In this document: positions 208 to 12,031 of the stretch, piece by piece
How positions within the stretch are numbered: the stretch's first letter is position 1
Layout of the letters: each line of letters opens with the position of its first letter
Source of the DNA: Pseudomonadota bacterium
GTDB taxonomy: Bacteria; UBA10199; 2-02-FULL-44-16; JAAZCA01
Direction of reading: 5' to 3'
DNA length: 14,507 bases
Assembly (NCBI GenBank): GCA_043822785.1
Contig: JBDRBN010000005.1
Location: forward strand, 1-14,507
Translations under genes and position numbers: made by a program
Notes under the pieces: model-generated
Told to the model about the DNA's origin: nothing
Seen by the model: only the letters and a program-made list of their open reading frames with translations
Database searches by the model: none

Positions 208-1284
208 ATGCTCTACTATCTTCTATATCCACTGCACACCGAGTTCATCGGCTTTAATGTGGTGCGCTACATAACCTTCAGGGCGTTTATGGCTACGTTT
301 ACCGCCATGGTCCTATACTTCCTGTTCGGAAAGCGCATGATAGCCTATCTCACCAATAAACAGTTTTGGCAAAGCGTGCGGGATGATGGTCCTGTCTCGC
401 ACATGGACAAGAGGGGCACTCCCACTATGGGAGGGCTATTGCTCTGGATCTCGGTGTTCATATCTACACTTCTGTGGTCGCGCTTTCAGGAACCATTCGT
501 GCTCTTAGCCATATGCATTGTGCTGTGCTATGGGCTGATAGGATTTCTAGATGATTACAGAAAGGTGATTCTAAGAGATGCTAAGGGCCTAAGGGCACGT
601 TGGAAGCTGCCGCTGCAGTTAGCAGTTGCCACAATAGCCATGCTCGTGCTCTTCGATACCATAGGCCTTTCCCGCGACTTGTCAGTCCCGTTCTTCAAAG
701 GGTTTAACCCAAATCTTGGGTGGGCATACATACCGTTTAGCGTATTTGTAGTCGTTGGCGCTTCAAACGCGGTAAATCTAACCGACGGGCTCGATGGTCT
801 GGTTAGCGTGCCTTCCATAGTTGCTTTTTTGGCATATGCAATCCTCGCCTACATAGCAAGCCACGCTGCCATATCTAACTACCTGGCTGTTCAATCTGTG
901 CCAGGCAGCGGTGAGCTAGCAGTGATGTGCGGTGCTGTGGTTGGAGCCTGCGTGGGTTTTCTTTGGTATAACGCACATCCCGCTTCGATCTTCATGGGCG
1001 ATGTGGGTTCGCTCCCCCTGGGAGCACTTTTAGGGTACGTTGCTGTGGTCACAAAAAACGAGATATTGCTCGTCCTGATCGGAGGGATTTTTGTTTTAGA
1101 AACAATATCGGTCATCACACAGGTCGTATCATTTAAGTTGACCGGCAAGCGCGTCTTTAGGATGGCGCCTCTTCATCATCATTTTGAATTAAAAGGGTGG
1201 AGCGAATCCAAAGTGATAGTTCGCTTTTGGATCATAGCTATAATATTAGCTTTGGCATCGCTGTCGACGCTGAAGCTGAGATAG
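208..1284 (+). CDS. mraY: Phospho-N-acetylmuramoyl-pentapeptide transferase
   Basis: 358 aa membrane protein with KRGTPTMGG, GFLDDY, SNAVNLTDGLDGL, FMGDVGS and MAPLHHHFELKGW motifs. AAGGA lies upstream of the ATG. Confidence 0.98.
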   Translation: MLYYLLYPLHTEFIGFNVVRYITFRAFMATFTAMVLYFLFGKRMIAYLTNKQFWQSVRDDGPVSHMDKRGTPTMGGLLLWISVFISTLLWSRFQEPFVLLAICIVLCYGLIGFLDDYRKVILRDAKGLRARWKLPLQLAVATIAMLVLFDTIGLSRDLSVPFFKGFNPNLGWAYIPFSVFVVVGASNAVNLTDGLDGLVSVPSIVAFLAYAILAYIASHAAISNYLAVQSVPGSGELAVMCGAVVGACVGFLWYNAHPASIFMGDVGSLPLGALLGYVAVVTKNEILLVLIGGIFVLETISVITQVVSFKLTGKRVFRMAPLHHHFELKGWSESKVIVRFWIIAIILALASLSTLKLR

Positions 1285-1369: not shown

Positions 1370-2761
1370 ATGGATCTCAAAGATAAAAAAGTCTTGGTCA
1401 TAGGCTTGGGGCGTTCTGGCATCGCAGCAGCTCGCTACTTAGCAAATGAAGGCGCCTGTGTTATCGCAGCAGATATAAAGGATGCCAGCGAGCTGACACA
1501 GGCTATCTCCGCTCTGAAAGGCATGGGGGTCAAGTTCAGGTTTGGACATGACAGCCTAAAGCTAGATGACACTTGCGATATGATCGTAGCGAGTCCGGGC
1601 GTACCGCTTGATCTGCCAGGTCTTACCCTCCTTCGCGCTAAAGGCATACCCATAATCGGGGAACTCGAACTCGCATCTTACAAAATCACTCGCCCTATCA
1701 TAGCGGTCACCGGAACTAACGGAAAAACCACCACGACTTCGCTGATCGGACATCTTTTGAATAAAGCAGGGATATCCGCGTGCGTTGCGGGCAATATCGG
1801 AACACCCCTCATCGATGTCATAGATGAAGCGCAGCGTTCTGATTATGTTGTGGTCGAGGTGTCAAGCTTCCAGATGGATACCGCTCCAACTTTTCCTGCG
1901 CATATAGCCGTATGGCTCAACGCCACTTGCGACCATATCGATAGACATGGCACGTTTGAGAATTATGTTGCGAGCAAAGCAAAGCTCTTCGCACAGATGC
2001 CAAGTCATGGCATAGGCATCTATAATGCTGCAGATGACTCAGTATCACACGCAGTCACGGCATCATCATGCAAGCTCATCCCATTTGATGCGACGGGCAA
2101 TCTGTTGGCGCGCGCACATCATCATCATGGAACGGCTGATGGGTTTGCGTGGTACGAAAGCGGCAGCCTGTGCGTACGCATAGGTGCGGAAACTGCACAT
2201 CGCTACCCATTATCCAAAACAACGCTTCCAGGCCCACACAACAGGGAGAACATGCTCGCTGCCCTTTTGGCTGCACGGCTCGCTGGCGCATCATACGATG
2301 CCCTGATCAGCGGTCTTTTAAGCTTTGCCGGGCTTGCCCACAGAGTGCAGTTCATAGGTGAGCACATGGGCGTTCGTTATTTCGACGATTCAAAAGGCAC
2401 CAACGTGGGGGCAACCATGAGGGCGCTGGATGTATTTTCAGAGCCAGTAGTTCTCATCGCAGGAGGCAGGTCAAAGGGTACCGACTTCTCTCCTCTTGCG
2501 CCCCAGATCAAAGGCAAGGTCAAAAAACTCATCCTCATCGGCGAAGCTGCTGATGAGATGCAAACTATATTTGGCATGCACACGAGCACAACCAAAGCAG
2601 ACTCCATGGACGAAGCTGTTAAAAAAGCAAGTATCGCAGCAGAAGTCGGGGATGTGGTTCTGCTTTCACCAGCATGTGCCAGCTTTGACATGTTTAAAGA
2701 CTATGCTGAAAGAGGAAACGCTTTTTCAGATGCAGTGATGAGGCTTTCGAAAAAAACATGA
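1370..2761 (+). CDS. murD: UDP-N-acetylmuramoyl-L-alanine--D-glutamate ligase
   Basis: GLGRSG, SPGVP, AVTGTNGKTTT P-loop, EVSSFQ, DHIDRH, DDSKGTN and LLSPACASFDMF motifs. Confidence 0.97.
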   Translation: MDLKDKKVLVIGLGRSGIAAARYLANEGACVIAADIKDASELTQAISALKGMGVKFRFGHDSLKLDDTCDMIVASPGVPLDLPGLTLLRAKGIPIIGELELASYKITRPIIAVTGTNGKTTTTSLIGHLLNKAGISACVAGNIGTPLIDVIDEAQRSDYVVVEVSSFQMDTAPTFPAHIAVWLNATCDHIDRHGTFENYVASKAKLFAQMPSHGIGIYNAADDSVSHAVTASSCKLIPFDATGNLLARAHHHHGTADGFAWYESGSLCVRIGAETAHRYPLSKTTLPGPHNRENMLAALLAARLAGASYDALISGLLSFAGLAHRVQFIGEHMGVRYFDDSKGTNVGATMRALDVFSEPVVLIAGGRSKGTDFSPLAPQIKGKVKKLILIGEAADEMQTIFGMHTSTTKADSMDEAVKKASIAAEVGDVVLLSPACASFDMFKDYAERGNAFSDAVMRLSKKT

Positions 2762-3882
2762 TGGAAGAATTCGAACATCAAAGAGTTCATCTCGACTCCA
2801 CCTTGCTCTTCTGCGTAATACTGCTCGTGGGCATAGGGGTCTTTATGAACTATAGCGCCAGCGCGGTGCTGGCTCGCGAGCGTTTCGGCGATAGCTACTT
2901 CTTTCTCAAGAGGACGCTTCTTTTCTGCTGTCTTGGATTTGGCGGAATGGCTATCACCACGCGTTTTGAGTACAGGCGATATCGCACGATCGTCTACCCC
3001 ATCTTGTTTGCCACGCTAGTACTCGTGGGATTGGTCTTCATGCCAGGCATAGGCAAGACTATAAGCGGAGCCACGCGTTGGATAAACTTGGGTGTGTTCG
3101 CGTTTCAGCCGTCTGAAGCAGCCAAGATTGCTATGATCATATTCCTGGCATATTCCCTGGAAAAAAAATCAGGAAAGATAAAGAGCTTTGGAGTGGGATT
3201 TGTACCACACATACTGTTCATGACGGTTGTAGCATCGTGCATACTTCTACAGAAGGACTTTGGAGCAGCTGCTACCATAGCAGCGATCACGTGGCTCATG
3301 ATGTTCGTTGCAGGCGTGAGGATGCCTTACCTCTTTGGAATGCTGGCAGCAGCTTTGCCTTTGGCCGTCATGCTGGTAGCTAGCTCGGAATACAGGCGGC
3401 GTCGCATCCTGGCTTTTTTGAACCCATGGGATGATCAGTATGGATCTGGTTTTCAGATGATCCAGTCGTTTGTGGCATTTAACGAAGGCGGATGGTTTGG
3501 AAAGGGCTTAGGCCAAGGCCAGCAAAAGCTCTTCTACCTGCCCGAAGCGCATACGGATTTTATCTTTTCGGTAATCGGAGAGGAGATGGGCCTTGTTGGA
3601 ATAGTTCTTGTGATATCGCTGTTTGGCTTTTTTTGTTACCGCGGCTTTATAATAGCGCTGCGCGCTCCAGACTTATTTGGTCGACATCTGGCTCTGGGTT
3701 GCACGCTGCTAATCGCGCTGGAAGCTGTGCTCAATATGGGTGTGGTGATGGGCATTTTTCCAACAAAGGGACTGGCCCTTCCATTTATAAGTTACGGAGG
3801 GTCATCGCTTGTAATCTCGCTCATAGCCGTTGGCATACTGCTCAACATATCCACATATAAACGAGTTGAGCGAAGCTGGTAA
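2758..3882 (+). CDS. ftsW: SEDS-family peptidoglycan glycosyltransferase FtsW
   Basis: GATRWI, FQPSEAAK, YLPEAHTDFIF and LPFISYGGSS motifs. Sits between murD and murG, with an ATGA overlap on the murD stop. Confidence 0.96.
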   Translation: MMEEFEHQRVHLDSTLLFCVILLVGIGVFMNYSASAVLARERFGDSYFFLKRTLLFCCLGFGGMAITTRFEYRRYRTIVYPILFATLVLVGLVFMPGIGKTISGATRWINLGVFAFQPSEAAKIAMIIFLAYSLEKKSGKIKSFGVGFVPHILFMTVVASCILLQKDFGAAATIAAITWLMMFVAGVRMPYLFGMLAAALPLAVMLVASSEYRRRRILAFLNPWDDQYGSGFQMIQSFVAFNEGGWFGKGLGQGQQKLFYLPEAHTDFIFSVIGEEMGLVGIVLVISLFGFFCYRGFIIALRAPDLFGRHLALGCTLLIALEAVLNMGVVMGIFPTKGLALPFISYGGSSLVISLIAVGILLNISTYKRVERSW

Positions 3883-3909: not shown

Positions 3910-5010
3910 ATGAGTGTTTCTAAGAAAAACAAAGATGTGATCATAGCTGCCGGCGGAACTGGCGGACACGTTTTTTCTGGCATAGCCATTGCCGAGGAGA
4001 TGAGGCGCGCTGATCCATCCGTGCGCATATGTTTTGCCGGCACGGCAAGAGGGCTTGAGTCCAGCATAATGCCCAAACTCGGTTGGCCGCTCATGCTCGT
4101 GGGTGCGCATTCCATAAAGGACAAGCGAGGCATAAGAAGAATCATGGCATGGCTTAACGTGCCTTTCTCCATAGCGAGAGCGCTGGCGATCCTTCTGTCA
4201 AAAAAGCCCTCGCTCGTGGTAAGCATTGGCGGTTATGCTGCTGGTCCGCTCGTAGTCGCAGCGTGGATTCTATGGATACCAGTTGCTCTTGTAGAACCCA
4301 ATGCAATACCGGGCATGACAAACCGCATGCTTGGCAGGTTTGCAAAAAAGGTCTTCATAACGTTTGAACAAGCTAAGGGCTTTTTTGCAAAAAAGAAGAC
4401 CATGCTCACAGGAACACCGTTGCGCAAAGAAGTGCTTGAGACAACAAAGGCTAAGCCAGCTTTTGAAAAAGAAAACACCCTCTTTGTGTTTGGCGGATCC
4501 CAAGGAGCTATGACATTAAATAGGGCAATGATTGGAGCAGCAAGTTTACTCAAAGATATAGCAGGTGGCGTGAAGGTAATACATCAGGTGGGAGCGAACA
4601 GCGATCTTTCCAAGATAGAAGCTGCGTATAAAACAGCCGGCATAGAAGCAGAGGTGATGCCCTTCTGCGATAGGATCTGGGAGTGTTATGAAAAAGCAGA
4701 CATGGTCATCGCTCGCTCCGGCGCAATTACGATTGCTGAAGTTTCAGCGCTTGGCATTCCATCAATACTCGTGCCCTACCCTTATGCAGCAGACGATCAT
4801 CAGCGCGCCAATGCCAAAGCTTTGGTAAATGCAGGCGGCGCTGTGTTGATCGAAGATTCAGAATGCACCGGAGAAAGACTAGCGCAAGAGATAGCAAACA
4901 TGTTAGGCGATTCAAAAAATCTTAAGTCTATGGGAGAGGCTGCAGCATCTTTTGGAAAGAGGGATGCAGCGAAAAGAATCGCAGATGAGAGTTTAAAGCT
5001 GACAAATTAA
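3910..5010 (+). CDS. murG: Undecaprenyl-PP-MurNAc-pentapeptide GlcNAc transferase
   Basis: GGTGGH, GGY, EPNAIPG, GGSQGA, RSGA and DDHQRANA motifs. Confidence 0.97.
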   Translation: MSVSKKNKDVIIAAGGTGGHVFSGIAIAEEMRRADPSVRICFAGTARGLESSIMPKLGWPLMLVGAHSIKDKRGIRRIMAWLNVPFSIARALAILLSKKPSLVVSIGGYAAGPLVVAAWILWIPVALVEPNAIPGMTNRMLGRFAKKVFITFEQAKGFFAKKKTMLTGTPLRKEVLETTKAKPAFEKENTLFVFGGSQGAMTLNRAMIGAASLLKDIAGGVKVIHQVGANSDLSKIEAAYKTAGIEAEVMPFCDRIWECYEKADMVIARSGAITIAEVSALGIPSILVPYPYAADDHQRANAKALVNAGGAVLIEDSECTGERLAQEIANMLGDSKNLKSMGEAAASFGKRDAAKRIADESLKLTN

Positions 5011-5071: not shown

Positions 5072-6439
5072 ATGTTTAAGAAGTATAAACACATTCATTT
5101 TGTTGGCATAGGCGGCATAGGCATGAGCGGCATTGCCGAAGTGCTCATCAACCTGGGCTATCGCGTGAGCGGATCTGACGTCAAACGCGGCGAGACAACG
5201 CGCAGGCTCAAGAGGCTAGGTGCTAAGATATATTATGATCATAAGCGCTATAACATAGAGGGCTCACATGTGGTCGTGGTGTCATCTGCGGTCAAAGAGA
5301 CAAATCCAGAGGTAAAAGAAGCAAGAAAGCTTGGCATCGCAGTTGTGCCAAGGGCAGAGATGCTGGCTGAGCTCATGCGCCTAAAGTATGGAGTAGCTGT
5401 GGCTGGAACACATGGCAAGACATCCACGACATCTATCATAGGTCATCTGCTCGACTATGCTAAGTTTGATCCCACAGTCATCATCGGGGGCAAGGTAAAT
5501 AATCTAAGATCGAACGCAAGGCTTGGAAAAGGCAAATTTCTCGTTGCAGAAGCAGATGAATCTGATGGATCATTTTTAAAGCTAGCGCCGACCATCGGAG
5601 TGATAACAAACATCGATCCAGAGCACATGGAAAACTATCAAAGCTTTAACGATCTAAAGCGCGCTTTCGTGGAGTTCGCAAACAAGGTGCCGTTCTACGG
5701 TGCAGTGGTCGCATGCGCAAGCCATCCGACCGTGCGCAAAATCATTCCCTATGTTACCAGGCCCATCATCACATATGGAGATAGGGATGCCGACTACACT
5801 GCGCGCAAGATTACTCAGGATGGTGATAAGCTCAAGTTCGAAGCAGTCTACGCAGGAGAGCTTTTAGGAGAAGTATCGCTTCGCATGACCGGAGCTCACA
5901 ACGCGCTGAACGCCCTTGCAGCTATCGCTGTGGGCCGGCATCTGGACATCCCCTTTTCAACCATTAAGTCCGCACTCAAAGGATTCAAAGGCGTTGTCAG
6001 GCGTTTTCAAGTTCTGTCAAAGGTAGGACCCATCGTAGTTGATGATTATGCTCATCATCCGGTGGAAATAAAAGCTACAATAGACGCTGCGAAGTCAGGC
6101 TGGCCAACCAGGCGCATCGTGAGTGTTGTGCAGCCACATCGTTATTCAAGGCTGGCAAATCTCTTTGATGACTTTGTCACATCCGTAAAGGACGCAGATG
6201 CTGTTGTAGTGATGGATGTATATGCAGCAGGCGAGAGACCACGCAGAAATCACACAGGAGAGAGACTATGGCGAGAGATGTGCAAGAAATATCCCAAGAA
6301 GATGATTGCGTTTGCGCCGACGACACAAGAGGTTCAGTCAACGCTGGCACCATGGTGCACGAAGGAGGACTTGATCCTGTTCATGGGTGCGGGGAGCATA
6401 ACGATGACAGCGAAAATCTGCTCGAAGAGCTTGACCTGA
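5072..6439 (+). CDS. murC: UDP-N-acetylmuramate--L-alanine ligase
   Basis: HFVGIGGIGMSGIA, AGTHGKTST, EADESDGSF, DDYAHHP and QPHRYSR motifs. Confidence 0.98.
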   Translation: MFKKYKHIHFVGIGGIGMSGIAEVLINLGYRVSGSDVKRGETTRRLKRLGAKIYYDHKRYNIEGSHVVVVSSAVKETNPEVKEARKLGIAVVPRAEMLAELMRLKYGVAVAGTHGKTSTTSIIGHLLDYAKFDPTVIIGGKVNNLRSNARLGKGKFLVAEADESDGSFLKLAPTIGVITNIDPEHMENYQSFNDLKRAFVEFANKVPFYGAVVACASHPTVRKIIPYVTRPIITYGDRDADYTARKITQDGDKLKFEAVYAGELLGEVSLRMTGAHNALNALAAIAVGRHLDIPFSTIKSALKGFKGVVRRFQVLSKVGPIVVDDYAHHPVEIKATIDAAKSGWPTRRIVSVVQPHRYSRLANLFDDFVTSVKDADAVVVMDVYAAGERPRRNHTGERLWREMCKKYPKKMIAFAPTTQEVQSTLAPWCTKEDLILFMGAGSITMTAKICSKSLT

Positions 6440-7428
6440 TGGCGCTAAACCCAAGGCTGCGCGCAAAGCTTGAAAGACAACGTGAACAGGAAAAAAACAT
6501 AAGTCGCGAACAGCTCGAAGAGCTCGTGCGCCTTTTTTCCCAAGGATCTGTTTTTGTAAATGAGTCCACAGCAAATCACAGCGCAGCTCGGGTGGGTGGA
6601 GCTGTAGAAGCTTTCGTGACCACAAACGATATGGATGAGTTAAAGCGTGCTATCGCGTGGGCAAACGAGCTTTCAATTGAGTATCGCTTTTGGGGAACAG
6701 GCTCGTTTACACTCGTACGCGATGGCGGGCTTAGCGGCATCTTAATCAAACTAGGCGATGGCTTTAAGGATATAGCGGTGGAGCGCTCTTTTGAATCTGA
6801 GGTCTTTGTTTCAGCAGGAGCAGGTACAAAAGTATATGAGTTCACATCTTTCTGTAAAGCCCAGGGAATATCTGGTGCAGAACAACTTTGTGGAGCACAG
6901 GGGACCTTAGGCGGCCTGCTCTGTGCTCAAGCATCACCAGACGGAAAAACCCTCGAGGGTATGGTGGAGGAGATCACTATCATAACCCGCGAAGGACGTG
7001 AGCTCACGCTAAGGGGATCTGGGCTTCGGTTTGAAGAAGGTCGCCTTAAGATTCCGCGCACATCTTGCGTAACAAAAGCGCTCTTTAAGCTCTCGCGCGC
7101 ATGCGATTCCGTCATTGCGAGAAGCCCTTCGACGTTGCTCAGGGCAGGCTCCTGCGACGAAGCAATCCCATACGACACCCCCTGCTTCGCACTTGCATTC
7201 AAGAGCCCGTGCAAAACTTCTGCACAAATCTTGATAGACGAAGCTGGGCTTACAAGTGTGCGCGTTGGCAATGCAAGGGTATCTGCTGAAAACGCCTGCA
7301 CCATACAAAACGAAGGCGATGCCACGGCAAAGGACATAATAGTGCTCATCAGTTTAATTAAGGATCGAGTAAAACAAGCGTCGGGTATTCTGCTTGTGTC
7401 CACTATAGACATAGTAGGAAAGCGCTAA
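6439..7428 (+). CDS. murB: MurB-like protein (UDP-N-acetylenolpyruvoylglucosamine reductase fold), probably catalytically inactive
   Basis: Lies between murC and ddl with collinear remnants of MurB motifs (RVGG, GxGS-LVRDGG, AGAG, GTLGG, FKSP, LIDEAGL, GNARVS, N-G-ATAKDI). Start placed at ATG 6439 (TGATG overlap with the murC stop) rather than 6268. Key residues are substituted. Confidence 0.85.
   Translation: MALNPRLRAKLERQREQEKNISREQLEELVRLFSQGSVFVNESTANHSAARVGGAVEAFVTTNDMDELKRAIAWANELSIEYRFWGTGSFTLVRDGGLSGILIKLGDGFKDIAVERSFESEVFVSAGAGTKVYEFTSFCKAQGISGAEQLCGAQGTLGGLLCAQASPDGKTLEGMVEEITIITREGRELTLRGSGLRFEEGRLKIPRTSCVTKALFKLSRACDSVIARSPSTLLRAGSCDEAIPYDTPCFALAFKSPCKTSAQILIDEAGLTSVRVGNARVSAENACTIQNEGDATAKDIIVLISLIKDRVKQASGILLVSTIDIVGKR
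7111..7168 (+). repeat. In-frame REP-like element inside murB, containing a nested 24-bp hairpin (7125-7148)
   Basis: GTCATTGCGAGAAG[CCCTTCGACGTTGCTCAGGGCAGG]CTCCTGCGACGAAGCAATCC. The outer parts match the reverse complement of 17-55. Encodes VIARSPSTLLRAGSCDEAI. Confidence 0.85.
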
Positions 7429-7443
7429 AATAAGGAGCAGCGC

Positions 7444-8388
7444 ATGACTGGCAAATGGATGGGAAGACGAATCGCCGTACTCATGGGGGGCATCTCTAAA
7501 GAAAGAGAGATCTCCCTCAAGACCGGCAGTGCTATAACCCAGGCGCTAAAACGTCTCAATTACGATGTACACACTATTGATGTTGGAGATGGAGTGCAGC
7601 TTGTGGAGGACCTTACTAAAGTAAAACCCGACGTCGCCCTCATCGCGCTTCATGGCAAGTTTGGAGAGGACGGTTGCATACAGGGGCTTTTGGAGATGAT
7701 GAGGATACCCTACACAGGCGGTGGTGTTTTAGCCTCTGCAGTAGGTATGGATAAGATCATATGCAAGCGCGTTGCGCGCGAATTGGGCATACCATGTGTT
7801 CCTGACAGATTTTTTGAAACCAGTACAAATGATGCAGAGCATTTTGTTAAAGAATTTAAAATGGAGTTTCCTGTAATCGTTAAGCCATCTCGCGAAGGGT
7901 CCACGATCAACATGACGATTGTAAACAAACTAGATGAACTACGAGAAGCCATAAGGGTTGCCATACAATCAGACACCAAGGTGATCGTAGAGCAGTACAT
8001 CAAAGGTAAGGAAGTGACCGTCGGGCTCATAAACGGCCAGGCGCTCCCTGCACTTGAGATCGCACCGAAGAGCGGGTTCTATGACTATACGTCCAAATAC
8101 ACAAAGGGCATGACCGAATACATAGTGCCTGCTCGAATAGGCGATGCAATTGCTCTGAAGCTTAAGCGCTGGAGTGAAATCCTATGCGAAGCGATCGAAT
8201 GCGAAGGCACAGCGCGCGTGGATTTTATCGTAAGGGATGATAGCGAAGCATATTTCCTTGAAGTGAACACCATACCCGGGATGACAGAGTTGTCTTTGGT
8301 ACCAAAAGCTGCCGCACACATCGGCATCGGGTTTGACGAAGTGTGTGAAAGACTACTTGATGGAGCTAGGTTAAAGGTAAACATATAA
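7444..8388 (+). CDS. ddl: D-alanine--D-alanine ligase
   Basis: GGISKEREISL, ALHGKFGEDG, VKPSREGS, FYDYTSKY and LEVNTIPGMT motifs. TAAGGAG ribosome-binding site upstream. Confidence 0.97.
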   Translation: MTGKWMGRRIAVLMGGISKEREISLKTGSAITQALKRLNYDVHTIDVGDGVQLVEDLTKVKPDVALIALHGKFGEDGCIQGLLEMMRIPYTGGGVLASAVGMDKIICKRVARELGIPCVPDRFFETSTNDAEHFVKEFKMEFPVIVKPSREGSTINMTIVNKLDELREAIRVAIQSDTKVIVEQYIKGKEVTVGLINGQALPALEIAPKSGFYDYTSKYTKGMTEYIVPARIGDAIALKLKRWSEILCEAIECEGTARVDFIVRDDSEAYFLEVNTIPGMTELSLVPKAAAHIGIGFDEVCERLLDGARLKVNI

Positions 8389-8526: not shown

Positions 8527-9324
8527 ATGAGCGTATTCTTAGATCGACAAAATGTGCAGCGAAAGAGGCAGTGGTCCAGAAGGCTGCGCCAAATAGAAAG
8601 CATGCTTCTTTCCATGCTCGTCATGGTTGCGGGATTGGCAGCGATTTATGGCCTCTACAAGCTTATCTTTTTAGGATCTGTCTTTAAAGTAGAAAGGATC
8701 GTGGTTGAAGGAAATTGGAATTATATTACTGCAGACGAAGTGGCGTTCGGATCCGGCATAAGAAAAGGCGATAACCTCTTCTGGATATCAGTTTCTGATA
8801 TTCACAAGAGGCTAAAGGAAAAACCGTGGATCAAAGAGGTTGCCGTAAGAAGGCAGCTTCCTGACACGCTTTGCATCTATGTGAAGGAATTTAGGCCAGC
8901 TGCCATCATGTACTCAAATCAGTTCTATCATGTGGATGACGAGGGATCTATAATAAAAATAGTCGAAGTAGCTGAGAATAAGGACTTACCGGTACTGAAC
9001 GGCATCATGATAGATGAAAACGGAAAGGTTGTGAAAGCACACCTGCCCAGGTTAAAGGAAATGCTCTCAATAGTTACGCTCTTTGACACAAGCCGGTTTG
9101 GCAGAAAAGAGGGTATCGCTGAAATCAACTACGACGAGATCAAAGGCTATTCGATAATAACTCGGCGCAATCCCATGCAAATACTCATCGGAAAAAAGGA
9201 TCTTGCAGAACGAATAGATCAAATCGACCGCATGAGCAATGCTATGATCAAAGATCGTGCGCCAATACAATATATGGTTGCAAATGAAGGACGACGAATC
9301 ATCGTCAGATATAGGCCGTCATGA
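8527..9324 (+). CDS. ftsQ: Cell division protein FtsQ/DivIB
   Basis: Basic N-terminus, one TM helix and a POTRA-like segment (F-V--I-VEGN, G-NLF, PWIKEVAVRRQLPDTL-I-VKE). Sits between ddl and ftsA. Confidence 0.9.
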   Translation: MSVFLDRQNVQRKRQWSRRLRQIESMLLSMLVMVAGLAAIYGLYKLIFLGSVFKVERIVVEGNWNYITADEVAFGSGIRKGDNLFWISVSDIHKRLKEKPWIKEVAVRRQLPDTLCIYVKEFRPAAIMYSNQFYHVDDEGSIIKIVEVAENKDLPVLNGIMIDENGKVVKAHLPRLKEMLSIVTLFDTSRFGRKEGIAEINYDEIKGYSIITRRNPMQILIGKKDLAERIDQIDRMSNAMIKDRAPIQYMVANEGRRIIVRYRPS

Positions 9325-9373: not shown

Positions 9374-9402
9374 ACTTGTGACCGGGGAAAGGGGGAGTGC
9401 GT

Positions 9403-10629
9403 ATGGCAAAGCGAGAAGAGCTTGTTGTGGGGCTCGATATAGGCACCACAAAAATCTGCTGTATCGTAGGTGAGGTGATGAACGAGGGGGTCGATATAAT
9501 CGGCATCGGCACCCACCCATCAAAGGGTTTGCGCAAAGGCGTGGTGGTCAACATCGAGAGCACTGTGGGCTCGATCCGAAAGGCTGTCGAGGAAGCTGAG
9601 CTCATGGCTGGATGCGAGATCACCTCGGTCTTTGCAGGAATTGCCGGGGGACACATCAAAGGCTTAAACAGCCACGGCATAGTCGCGATCAAGGATAAGG
9701 AAGTCACTCCCATGGATGTGGATCGCGTGATCGATGCTGCCCAGGCAGTCTCCATACCCCTGGATCGTGAAGTGATACACGTCGTGCCTCAGCAGTTTAT
9801 AGTCGATGACCAAGATGGAGTGCGCGATCCAGTGGGAATGAGCGGCATTAGACTAGAGGCCAAGGTGCACATCGTCACAGGCGCTGTCACCTCTGCCCAG
9901 AACATAATCAAATGCTGCAACCGAGCAGGACTCAATGTAAACGATATCATCCTGCAGCAGCTAGCTTCTGCCGAAGCGGTCATAAGCGCTGACGAAAAGG
10001 ATTTGGGAGTGGTGCTCATAGACTGCGGCGGCGGCACCACAGACATCGCCGTGTTCTCACAGGGGTCCATCGTCTTTACCTCGGTCCTCACCATAGGAGG
10101 CAACCACCTCACAAACGATGTGGCGGTTGGGCTAAGAACGCCAGCATATGAAGCTGAAAAGATAAAGCAGCGCTATGGATGCTGCTCAACAAGCATGGTG
10201 CACAAGGACGAAACCATAGAGGTGCCTTCTGTTGGCGGCAGAAACCCCAGACTGCTCTCTCGCCAGATAATGGCAGAAATACTGGAGCCTCGTATGGAAG
10301 AGGTGTTCACCCTGGCTCAGCAGGAGCTGGTGCGCTCAGGCTATGAGGATATGGTCGCAGCCGGAGTTGTTCTCACCGGTGGCACCACCCTCTTGGAGGG
10401 CACGGTGGAGCTTGCCGAACAGGTGTTCAACCTTCCGGTGAGATCTGGCCTTCCAAAGAGGATCGGCGGACTCGTGGATGTTGTTCGCAATCCCATGTAT
10501 TCCACAGGCGTTGGTCTTGTGATCATGGGGTCTGCATCGCGCGACGAACAGCGATTTAAAATACGGGACCGCAATTTATACTCAAAAGTCAAAGGCCGCA
10601 TGAAGGAGTTTTTGGGAGAGATCCTCTGA
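9403..10629 (+). CDS. ftsA: Cell division protein FtsA
   Basis: GLDIGTTKI, GLRKGVVVNIE, DCGGGTTD and VLTGG motifs. ATG 9403 follows a GGGGGAG ribosome-binding site; the ORF track starts two codons earlier at GTG 9397. Confidence 0.98.
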   Translation: MAKREELVVGLDIGTTKICCIVGEVMNEGVDIIGIGTHPSKGLRKGVVVNIESTVGSIRKAVEEAELMAGCEITSVFAGIAGGHIKGLNSHGIVAIKDKEVTPMDVDRVIDAAQAVSIPLDREVIHVVPQQFIVDDQDGVRDPVGMSGIRLEAKVHIVTGAVTSAQNIIKCCNRAGLNVNDIILQQLASAEAVISADEKDLGVVLIDCGGGTTDIAVFSQGSIVFTSVLTIGGNHLTNDVAVGLRTPAYEAEKIKQRYGCCSTSMVHKDETIEVPSVGGRNPRLLSRQIMAEILEPRMEEVFTLAQQELVRSGYEDMVAAGVVLTGGTTLLEGTVELAEQVFNLPVRSGLPKRIGGLVDVVRNPMYSTGVGLVIMGSASRDEQRFKIRDRNLYSKVKGRMKEFLGEIL

Positions 10630-10711: not shown

Positions 10712-12031
10712 ATGTTTGAACTTGTTGAAAATTGCGCACAGAACGCAAAGATAAAGGTGATAGGAATCGGCGGAGGAGGAGGTAATGCCATCAACACTAT
10801 GATGGAGATGGGATTGGACGGTGTTGATTTCATCGCTGCCAACACTGACATGCAGGCGCTCAAGGCCAACTTAGCAGCACACAAGATACAGATAGGTAAG
10901 GAATTGACAAAAGGTTTGGGTGCGGGTGCCAGCCCCGACATCGGCCGCAACGCTGCGCTTGAAGACCAGCGCGCCATAAGCGAGCACTTCGAAGGCGTGG
11001 ATATGGTCTTCATAACTGCAGGCATGGGCGGCGGCACAGGCACAGGAGGAGCACCTGTCATTGCAAAGATCGCCAAGGAGATGGGTGCGCTCACAGTAGG
11101 CGTGGTCACTAAACCCTTTGAGTTCGAGGGCAAGCAACGCGCGCTTCAGGCTGAACGCGGCATAAGCGAGCTTAGGGATTCGGTGGATACGCTCATCACC
11201 ATTCCAAACGAGAAGCTTTTAGAAGTAGTGTCGCACGATGTCACTGTTATCGATGCTTTTAAACAAGCAGATCAGGTTCTGCTACAAGCAGTGAGAGGCA
11301 TATCAGACCTCATTACCGTGCACGGTCTTGTCAACCTAGATTTTGCAGATGTGCGCACGGTCATGAACGAGATGGGTATGGCGCTCATGGGCACTGGAAC
11401 TGCAAGCGGCGAAGCACGCGCTATCGAGGCAGCTACTAAGGCAATATCCAGCCCGCTGCTGGAAGATATGACGATCAAGGGTGCAACCGGCATACTCATC
11501 AACATAACTGGCGGCTCTGATATGACGCTCTATGAGATCAGCGAAGCTTCGAAGATAATACAGGAAGAGGCGCACGAAGATGCAAACATACTCTTCGGCG
11601 CTGTCATCGACGAAGCCTTAAAGGGCGAGCTGCGCATTACAGTGATAGCGACAGGATTCAACAAACCACAGCACAAGGTGCTAAGGCACGCTAATTCCGC
11701 ACATACCGGAATTCATTCATATGCACCTCTGCCGCATGCAGCAGCATCGGTTCAGACAACGCTTACGCGTCCACAAGCACCATCCCAGATGCCTCAGCTG
11801 GATATGAGAGGGCTGCCAGCCCTGGGCGTACAGACGCACACGCCTACAAGAGGCATGGGACATGCGCAGGGCGCTTCACGCACCATGCCAATCGGCATGA
11901 ATCCGGCTGCCTCAATAAAAGCACATGAAGTCAAATCAGAACTCAAGGATATCGCTAAGGAAATTGGAGTGCTCGAATATCAGAACGATGAATATGATAT
12001 CCCGACATTTTTGAGAAAACAGGCGGATTGA
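10712..12031 (+). CDS. ftsZ: Cell division protein FtsZ
   Basis: [16 protein letters not shown] tubulin signature, NLDFADV and C-terminal [17 protein letters not shown] ribosome-binding site. Confidence 0.99.

Follow-up and report, generated by a model that had tools for sequence, protein, structure and literature searches.

The window analysed here is a whole contig of 14,507 nucleotides (G000:C5) from a bacterial genome of 2.30 Mb (G000; 148 contigs, 87% complete). It carries the distal part of a division and cell wall (dcw) cluster, in which a murB-like gene lies between murC and ddl. MurB is usually treated as a plain, essential, single-function enzyme and drug target. We propose, with a probability of about 0.72, that the ancestral murB of this cluster, in an uncultured lineage resembling deltaproteobacteria, became a pseudoenzyme that is kept by selection, that a second murB took over the chemistry, and that the role retained by the dcw copy is structural. 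Judged from the aligned sequences, the dcw copy has lost the residues for binding of flavin adenine dinucleotide (FAD), for binding of the diphosphate of the uridine diphosphate (UDP)-sugar and of the carboxylate, and for proton donation, and modelling indicates that it has kept the three-domain type II MurB fold. A pseudoenzyme is defined by homology with catalytic loss, by purifying selection and by coverage of its reaction elsewhere, and this definition appears to fit the dcw copy at the sequence level. Fold, site loss, second gene, phylogenetic order, selection and the overlapping gene model were computed; the retained role, we infer, is structural or at any rate non-catalytic.

Active site and fold of the dcw copy

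Positions 6439-7428 translate without a stop codon into 329 amino acids, and residue numbers such as Leu252 and Thr322 are counted from the ATG at 6439 in this 329-residue form. A sequence-only reading of the window had listed six motif substitutions, all of which we found at the coordinates it had named (Table 1). HMMER alignments to the solved MurBs 4pyt, 3tx1 and 1hsk set a Leu against the general-acid Ser, a Thr against the catalytic Glu and an Asn against the conserved His. In terms of the Escherichia coli enzyme, Arg159, Ser229, Glu325 and Asn233 align with Gly201, Leu252 (CTT at 7192-7194), Thr322 (ACT at 7402-7404) and Ser256, meaning that these catalytic and substrate-binding residues of an active MurB are not in place. 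According to section 3.4.2 of PMC12844806, Arg159 and Glu325 hold the carboxylate in E. coli MurB, and Tyr190, Lys217, Asn233 and Glu288 hold the diphosphate; the title of reference 73 in that paper identifies Ser229 as the general acid. The FAD-binding motifs have changed as well. Where an active MurB has GxGSN and GxPGxxGGAxxxNAG, the dcw copy has GTGSF and GAQGTLGGLLCAQAS. Altogether, 0/11 sites that are near-invariant in active MurBs are kept, and as far as the alignments can tell, losses at 11/11 such sites exceed chance. The earlier impression of a catalytically dead protein is thus borne out at the level of alignment, as a structure-guided comparison puts no equivalents of the Arg, Ser and Glu in place.

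To place these losses in a broader context, 228 active-type sequences were compared with 41 degenerate ones. The groups were set by the Arg, Ser/Cys and Glu columns, with P0074, P0020 and duplicates dropped; sites such as N90, N164, Y200, R237, G251 and H285 are independent of this group definition. The Asn and NAG positions of the FAD-binding motifs are kept in 97-100% of the active sequences vs 2-29% of the degenerate ones, with frequencies falling from 0.97 to 0.02 at N90, from 1.00 to 0.15 at N164, from 0.99 to 0.29 at A165 and from 0.99 to 0.27 at G166. Further drops were observed at G152 (1.00 to 0.32), P154 (0.95 to 0.15), Y200 (1.00 to 0.00), R237 (1.00 to 0.15), G251 (1.00 to 0.07), K255 (0.86 to 0.17), N256 (0.95 to 0.15) and H285 (1.00 to 0.07). 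Fourteen core positions remain at 0.90 or above in the degenerate set, namely G53, G54, G86, G88, D95, G97, G155, G159, F254, G277, A279, L303, V311 and L319.

Both Pfam domains of MurB score above their cut-offs in the dcw copy (MurB_C 67.1 bits, FAD_binding_4 49.7 bits), and both NCBIfam equivalog cut-offs are failed (NF010480, 176.6 vs 259 bits; TIGR00179, 98.2 vs 144.5 bits). The 386-residue form described below also stays under these cut-offs (TIGR00179 97.4, NF010480 175.8 bits), as do, for TIGR00179, the degenerate orthologues of the genomes G012 (93.5), G002 (107.7) and G015 (104.3). Active sisters with a Cys as general acid pass both families, scoring 171.7/282.9 and 202/297.5 bits for TIGR00179/NF010480. 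An AlphaFold2 model of the 329-residue form, based on a 70-sequence alignment, reached a predicted local distance difference test (pLDDT) score of 92.8 and a predicted template modelling (pTM) score of 0.89, with only residues 231-240 low. The best Foldseek matches of this model are the type II MurBs 4pyt, 1hsk and 3tx1, with template modelling (TM) scores of 0.78-0.89 (0.82/0.89 for 4pyt) at 23-27% identity. Considering the confident MurB model together with the residue losses, the fold is therefore predicted to be intact and the residues that bear the chemistry to be gone; retention of the fold had been suggested before and is supported by the Pfam domains, the model and the matches to solved MurBs.

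A profile search of 1.84 billion cluster representatives (50%-identity clusters) indicates how widely the degenerate form occurs. Among the best 32 of the 150 matches listed, which were examined, 0-3 of the 11 sites are kept in 18, 10-11 in 13 and 6 in 1. These sequences fall almost completely into two groups, active and dead, and the dead group is diverse. The long persistence of a stripped MurB fold in a diverse clade (at least 18 of the 32 clusters examined) implies a second role for the protein, present today or gained at some point. Two metagenome proteins are intermediate: P0264 keeps 6/11 sites, and P0020 keeps the Arg and the Glu, with an Arg replacing the Ser/Cys and an Asn replacing the His.

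Such a second role could in principle be that of a ligand-binding regulator, i.e., instead of being a passive scaffold, the dcw copy could have been neofunctionalised to sense, for example, a UDP-sugar or a nucleotide and to control MurA, MurC or the second MurB. In favour of a sensor, the protein has kept its fold and domain arrangement, part of its Gly-rich loops and its position in the dcw operon. We regard this as unlikely, however, as the residues for diphosphate and carboxylate binding (Arg159, Glu325 and Asn233 in the E. coli enzyme as described in PMC12844806) are lost and variable, and no new conserved pocket residues were seen. Only 4/329 positions are clade-specific gains, at which the degenerate clade shares a residue that 24 active Cys-type sisters seldom have; therefore, a new pocket does not seem to have formed.

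The second murB, the order of events and selection

A family search of genome G000 revealed two MurB_C loci, the dcw copy and a second murB on contig C91. The latter encodes 296 amino acids with canonical motifs throughout; its product passes TIGR00179 with 207 bits (cut-off 144.5) and reaches 258.6 bits for NF010480, where the cut-off is 259. It is surrounded by housekeeping genes, namely scpA, scpB and those for a tRNA synthetase of class I (Trp/Tyr type), an rluB-like pseudouridine synthase and an M48 peptidase, and the second murB adjoins rluB in 6/10 other family loci. The murA gene of G000 is located on contig C24. Of the sources of UDP-N-acetylmuramic acid (UDP-MurNAc) proposed in the sequence-only reading, a second murB thus exists and is canonical, and the reduction step is presumably now carried out by the C91 MurB. 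Because MurA and the second MurB give a de novo route, the host- or prey-dependent lifestyle that had been put forward is not needed for G000. Salvage of MurNAc by AmgK and MurU, also proposed, found partial support: contig C59 (L129, 898-1926 and 179-925, minus strand) carries adjacent, overlapping kinase and uridylyltransferase genes that match AmgK and MurU best among the NCBIfam families, but both stay below the cut-offs (141 vs 550 bits for AmgK, 152 vs 250 bits for MurU). A salvage route may therefore exist beside the de novo one in G000. A gene of the aminoglycoside phosphotransferase (APH) family of ~345-400 amino acids, similar to the AmgK-like one, was the top match in G001, G002, G015 and G017.

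We compared 61 genomes of the class, including 13 of the window's family (f1) and members of its sister families (f2-f4). A MurB match was present in 60/61 of them. The second-copy type was found in 11/13 f1 genomes and both copies in 10/13, with G011 (78% complete) having the second copy only. Outside f1, the second-copy murB was found in 0/48 genomes of the class, and the nine other genomes of the order have one MurB locus each. A motif table of 41 MurB copies in all showed canonical motifs, with a Ser, in 9 dcw copies taken from other families of the class. In 8/9 dcw copies from f2-f4, the general-acid Ser is replaced by Cys and the other sites are kept where present (the G013 gene is interrupted); the dcw copy of G015 (f4) is degenerate. 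Within f1, G004 and G005 have intact Cys-type dcw copies, and 10 copies are degenerate. A Cys-type MurB is the only MurB found in G014, G016, G017, G019 and G020, all of which have murA. The Cys general acid (LGCVFKNP; L013-L021, L008, L009), Ser229 in E. coli, thus occurs in otherwise canonical dcw MurBs of the order. Two genes are broken: the second murB of G008 (L032, G008:C24) is split by a frameshift, with its N-terminal part and its MurB_C part in different frames, and the dcw murB of G013 (G013:C8:197133-198076) is interrupted by a TAA. These breaks may be assembly errors or real.

In a maximum-likelihood tree of 55 rows, rooted at the midpoint only and built without the two broken genes just named (second copy of G008, dcw copy of G013), the dcw clade and the second-copy clade are separated by branches with 100% support in the Shimodaira-Hasegawa-like approximate likelihood ratio test (SH-aLRT). 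The dcw copies of f1 form a clade (98%), within which the 10 degenerate copies form one clade (93%) and G004 and G005 stand outside; both of the latter genomes carry a second murB alongside a still-intact dcw copy. The dcw copy of G015 is an independent long branch (1.05) inside f4. The second-copy clade (99%) includes three metagenome proteins, and the nearest named relatives of the second copies, at ~45% identity, are labelled Pontiellaceae, Lentisphaerae and Aminicenantes. By its place in this tree, the dcw copy is the vertically inherited murB, and the second copy was probably acquired horizontally. Read most simply, the tree would mean that the family ancestor acquired the second murB once, that both genes were active for some time, a state still seen in G004 and G005, and that the dcw copy then lost its active site a single time.

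We envisage the following order of events. The common ancestor of f1 and f4 would have added an N-terminal extension to MurB, consisting of a disordered acidic tail encoded within murC and a helix. In the f1 ancestor, a canonical but distantly related murB would then have arrived beside rluB. Now that this gene covered the reductase step, the dcw copy could give up its active site, which would have happened a single time, in the ancestor of a clade of 10 genomes, G000 among them; the dcw protein would have stayed under purifying selection. If purifying selection continued after the loss, the protein must do something that requires its fold and not its chemistry. It may hold a place in a cytoplasmic assembly of Mur enzymes or in the divisome, perhaps through the older N-terminal extension.

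The ratio of nonsynonymous to synonymous substitution rates (dN/dS) was calculated by the method of Nei and Gojobori (NG86). A metagenome scan for closer relatives with unsaturated dS yielded 1 locus only (L128, 56% identity), and the estimates therefore rest on two within-genus pairs. For G001-G010, dN/dS was 0.17 for the pseudo-MurB, 0.064 for murC, 0.076 for ddl and 0.135 for the second murB; the corresponding values for G007-G012 were 0.33, 0.11, 0.18 and 0.22. These figures are rough, though far from 1, because synonymous sites are saturated or nearly so (dS of 0.8-1.7 by NG86, with higher values by maximum likelihood). Consistent with the proposal that the gene is kept under selection, the values of 0.17-0.33 are not near those of plain decay, and the open reading frame (ORF) is open in 10/10 degenerate f1 genomes. 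Plain decay was rejected in view of the open ORFs, the dN/dS values, the kept core residues and the confident model.

A subtler form of decay would be a gene whose frame stays open only for operon architecture, given that a premature stop would be polar on ddl-ftsQAZ. Such a constraint would suit a gene that starts inside murC and stops 15 nt before ddl, and the murB-like gene is indeed the fastest-evolving of the four genes compared, with 31-50% identity to G000 vs 68-77% for murC. We still consider this very unlikely, since dN/dS points to selection on the amino-acid sequence and not on mere openness. Core fold residues are conserved at 0.90 or above, the model is confident and alignment columns are on average 70% identical among 16 close relatives.

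Besides the near-saturated dS, several observations weigh against a selected pseudoenzyme whose reaction has passed to another gene. The lost reaction is covered in G000 by the C91 murB together with murA, with G002 and G006 as exceptions: a second murB was not found in G002 (99% complete, murA present) or in G006 (95% complete). Either this reflects an assembly gap, or the 'dead' form can suffice; G011, a congener of G006, has the second copy. All genomes are metagenome-assembled genomes, in which binning errors are possible, yet the pattern recurs in the 3-contig genome G003. GxGS and GTxGG are partly kept in the dcw copy, leaving room for nucleotide binding. Finally, in G015 (97% complete, 30 contigs), the dcw order (L132, G015:C9:34000-53000) is mraW-ftsI-one Mur ligase-mraY-ftsW-murG-dead murB-ddl-ftsQAZ; murC and murD are absent from this cluster, and no murA was found in the genome. 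As G015 keeps a dead copy without murC, murD and murA, a role that involves MurC only cannot be general. G015 has 3 Mur_ligase_M matches vs 6 in G000, G002 and G017, an AmgK/MurU-like pair is present, and its cell-wall precursor pathway looks salvage-dependent.

Some of the same observations raise the question of whether the dcw copy is still a UDP-N-acetylenolpyruvoylglucosamine reductase with a rebuilt active site. In G002, murA is accompanied by a degenerate-type MurB as the only one found, the GxGS and GTxGG motifs remain, and the general acid was already plastic in the order, having changed from Ser to Cys where that copy is the sole MurB found and murA is present. A rebuilt site is highly improbable, however. 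The Arg, Ser/Cys, Asn, His and Glu positions vary among the degenerate orthologues, so that no substitute set is conserved, and clade-specific gains amount to only 4/329 positions. Moreover, the residues of the FAD motifs are lost, and active-site loss coincides with having a canonical second murB.

A selected pseudoenzyme thus remains our favoured explanation. A more far-reaching form of it, which we find somewhat doubtful and offer tentatively, is that MurB had gained an essential non-catalytic job in the cytoplasmic machinery of cell-wall synthesis or division by means of its fold and disordered acidic tail, and that the old protein lived on as a purely structural subunit once the chemistry had passed to a foreign murB. 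If true, the dcw copy would be the first pseudoenzyme known among MurBs, and it would speak for the early Mur enzymes functioning as an assembly, where the presence of a member is required in addition to the reaction it catalyses. In any case, the dcw copy would offer a natural separation-of-function allele for seeking Mur-enzyme assemblies. Annotation pipelines name dead copies UDP-N-acetylmuramate dehydrogenase, so pathway reconstructions would assign this step to the wrong gene. In literature searches, with subscription journals outside their coverage, we came across no paper that describes a dead but conserved MurB or an overlap between murC and murB; PMC12288469 lists two murB genes in a planctomycete.

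Overlap of the murB-like gene with murC

The dcw copy had previously been described as a 329-codon frame beginning at ATG 6439. This start is not upheld, as the codon aligned to it is a start codon in only 2/16 related genomes (G000 and G010), and the peptide that follows (ALNPRLRAxLER) is conserved despite the start codon being confined to these two. An ATG located 57 codons upstream (6268) is kept in 15/16 f1 and f4 genomes, the exception being G015, where murC is missing upstream. The murB frame is open for 61-239 codons upstream of ATG 6439 in the 15 f1/f4 genomes with murC and for 35 codons in G015. On sequence grounds, a gene that spans 6268-7428 with 386 codons and a 172-nt out-of-frame overlap with murC is well-supported. 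Coupling to murC, as claimed in the sequence-only reading, is accordingly retained in the sense that the genes overlap, but by 172 nt out of frame (6268-6439) and not only by a 1-nt TGATG junction.

An alternative frame that is free of stops is weak evidence by itself: when the murC 3' end is shuffled synonymously, 8%-82% of the shuffles are stop-free as well. The case for the overlap therefore rests on the ATG, the Shine-Dalgarno-like site and the conservation of synonymous sites. ATG 6268 is made up of the third base of the murC Leu399 codon and the TG of Trp400, and hence Leu399 must be encoded by CTA or TTA. We found CTA in 13/15 and TTA in 2/15 genomes, and A-ending codons account for only 3-37% of murC Leu codons, although multiplying the Leu399 probabilities would overstate the case as kin are non-independent. 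Similarly, the murC Gly396 codon is GGG in 9/15 and GGA in 6/15 genomes, and this invariable choice of GGG or GGA creates, 5-9 nt before the ATG, a site resembling GGAG; purine runs of the GGAG/GGGGAG type precede the -57 ATG in 15/15 genomes.

Synonymous codon identity of murC was 0.657 over codons 399-455 (38 columns) vs 0.409 over codons 1-398 (276 columns; Mann-Whitney U test, p=4.8e-10). Restricted to codon families of 4-fold or higher degeneracy, it was 0.611 in the overlap vs 0.344 outside (p=2.0e-8), and no other 25-column murC window exceeds 0.505 synonymous identity. In 12 control genomes of the class without the extension, the values were 0.355 in the overlap region vs 0.379 in the rest (p=0.76), and the Leu399 codon was mixed. 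Together, these data argue for a long out-of-frame overlap of two core genes, in which the dual-coding stretch of 172 nt within murC is well-supported by sequence. A programmed -1 frameshift leading to a MurC-MurB fusion was considered and rejected: a slippery X_XXY_YYZ heptamer occurs in 1/15 genomes, at a non-shared site, and a start codon and a Shine-Dalgarno-like site are conserved instead.

The N-terminal 57 residues are acidic and predicted to be disordered (pLDDT <50, residues 1-54), and a helix at residues 62-76 of the 386-residue form is predicted with confidence. Because active copies (G004, G005 and f4) and dead copies both carry the N-terminal extension, it would be older than the loss of catalysis. 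A complex prediction of MurC with the murB-like protein, run without controls, gave interaction scores (ipSAE) of 0.00 and 0.00 and weighs neither way. Gene callers have assigned at least 3 different starts to the orthologues, at -57/-58, at -29/-28 and at +20 ('MTREQ'; P0003, P0022, P0027, P0041 and P0044 vs P0020, P0024 and P0026). In two further proteins, P0268 (766 amino acids) and P0337 (609 amino acids), the MurB-like part forms the C-terminal ~300 residues, and these are possible fusions of the MurC-MurB type among the relatives.

Gene neighbourhood and known systems

The features of the window are listed in Table 1. The dcw cluster had been called otherwise complete, which does not hold as worded, as the window opens at mraY and only the distal cluster lies on it; two further Mur-ligase genes were found side by side on contig C69. 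That the neighbouring Mur enzymes look normal was confirmed, with MurC and Ddl both scoring above their NCBIfam cut-offs. Relatives of the FtsZ encoded in the window all come from metagenome-assembled genomes; the closest show 57-70% identity and are mostly labelled as uncultured Deltaproteobacteria, Myxococcales or 'bacterium'.

Table 1 Features of the window, in order of position; motif residues follow the 329-residue numbering
Feature	Position	Strand	Remarks
mraY	208-1284		dcw cluster
murD	1370-2761		dcw cluster
ftsW	2758-3882		dcw cluster
murG	3910-5010		dcw cluster
murC	5072..6439	+	TIGR01082 537.9 bits vs cut-off 335.1; last 57 codons dual-coding
AGGAG, Shine-Dalgarno-like	6256..6260	+	7 nt upstream of ATG 6268, inside murC
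murB-like ORF	6268..7428	+	386 codons plus stop; putative catalytically degenerate MurB paralogue; Pfam MurB_C and FAD_binding_4
murC/murB-like overlap, 172 nt	6268..6439	+	murB frame = murC frame -1; encodes acidic 57-residue N-terminal tail
ATG, start in the sequence-only reading	6439..6441	+	overlaps murC stop TGA (6437-6439) by 1 nt
GTGSF, degenerate first FAD-binding motif (canonical GxGSN)	6694..6708 (aa 86-90)	+	Asn in 97% of 228 active-type vs 2% of 41 degenerate sequences
GAQGTLGGLLCAQASPDG, degenerate second FAD-binding motif	6892..6945 (aa 152-169)	+	G152, P154, N164, A165 and G166 drop in degenerate set
FEEGRL replacing FxYRxS	7030..7047 (aa 198-203)	+	Tyr and Arg159 equivalent lost
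PCFALAFKSP replacing PxxGSxFKNP	7180..7209 (aa 248-257)	+	general-acid Ser = Leu252; Asn233 equivalent = Ser256
ENACT replacing KHANF	7288..7302 (aa 284-288)	+	conserved His = Asn285
LVSTI replacing LExEV	7393..7407 (aa 319-323)	+	Glu325 equivalent = Thr322
ddl	7444..8388	+	starts 15 nt past murB-like stop; 367.8 bits vs NCBIfam cut-off 243
ftsQ	8527-9324		dcw cluster
ftsA	9397-10629		dcw cluster
ftsZ	10712-12031		dcw cluster
MltD-like protein, 755 aa	12167-14434		SLT lytic transglycosylase domain and six LysM repeats; directly after ftsZ

By fold and descent, the dcw copy belongs to the MurB superfamily, but classifying it as a MurB enzyme would be wrong: it was tested for four defining features of such an enzyme and showed none of them. 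It shares with the type II MurBs (4pyt; 1hsk from Staphylococcus aureus; 3tx1 from Listeria) the fold, the domain order and the Pfam domains, as well as the place between murC and ddl. It differs from them in that the Asn and NAG of the FAD motifs and the Tyr/Arg, Ser, Asn, His and Glu of the active site are lost and the equivalog cut-offs are failed. A further difference is the N-terminal extension, which is encoded partly inside murC.

The degenerate LytM-domain amidase activators EnvC and NlpD provide a precedent for an enzyme fold that was kept while catalysis was lost, and that serves a non-catalytic cell-wall role under selection. The targets of EnvC and NlpD are hydrolases, on which they act in the periplasm by an established mechanism, whereas the dcw copy would be cytoplasmic and derives from a reductase of precursor synthesis.

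In Verrucomicrobium spinosum, a MurC-MurB fusion complements murB and the isolated MurB domain does not, according to PMC4803751. By analogy, this hints at a dependence of MurB on MurC. The coupling of MurC and MurB and their order, MurC first, are common to that fusion as described in PMC4803751 and to the genes studied here. In the window, however, they are two ORFs in different frames (-1) with a 172-nt overlap and no continuous frame, i.e., not a fusion. Furthermore, the V. spinosum fusion is reported to complement murB, whereas the dcw MurB described here is degenerate. MurG, another Mur enzyme, is described as an oligomeric scaffold in Bordetella pertussis in PMC6420597. What the dcw copy would share with that system is the idea that Mur enzymes assemble and that a member can be needed for its place in addition to its chemistry.

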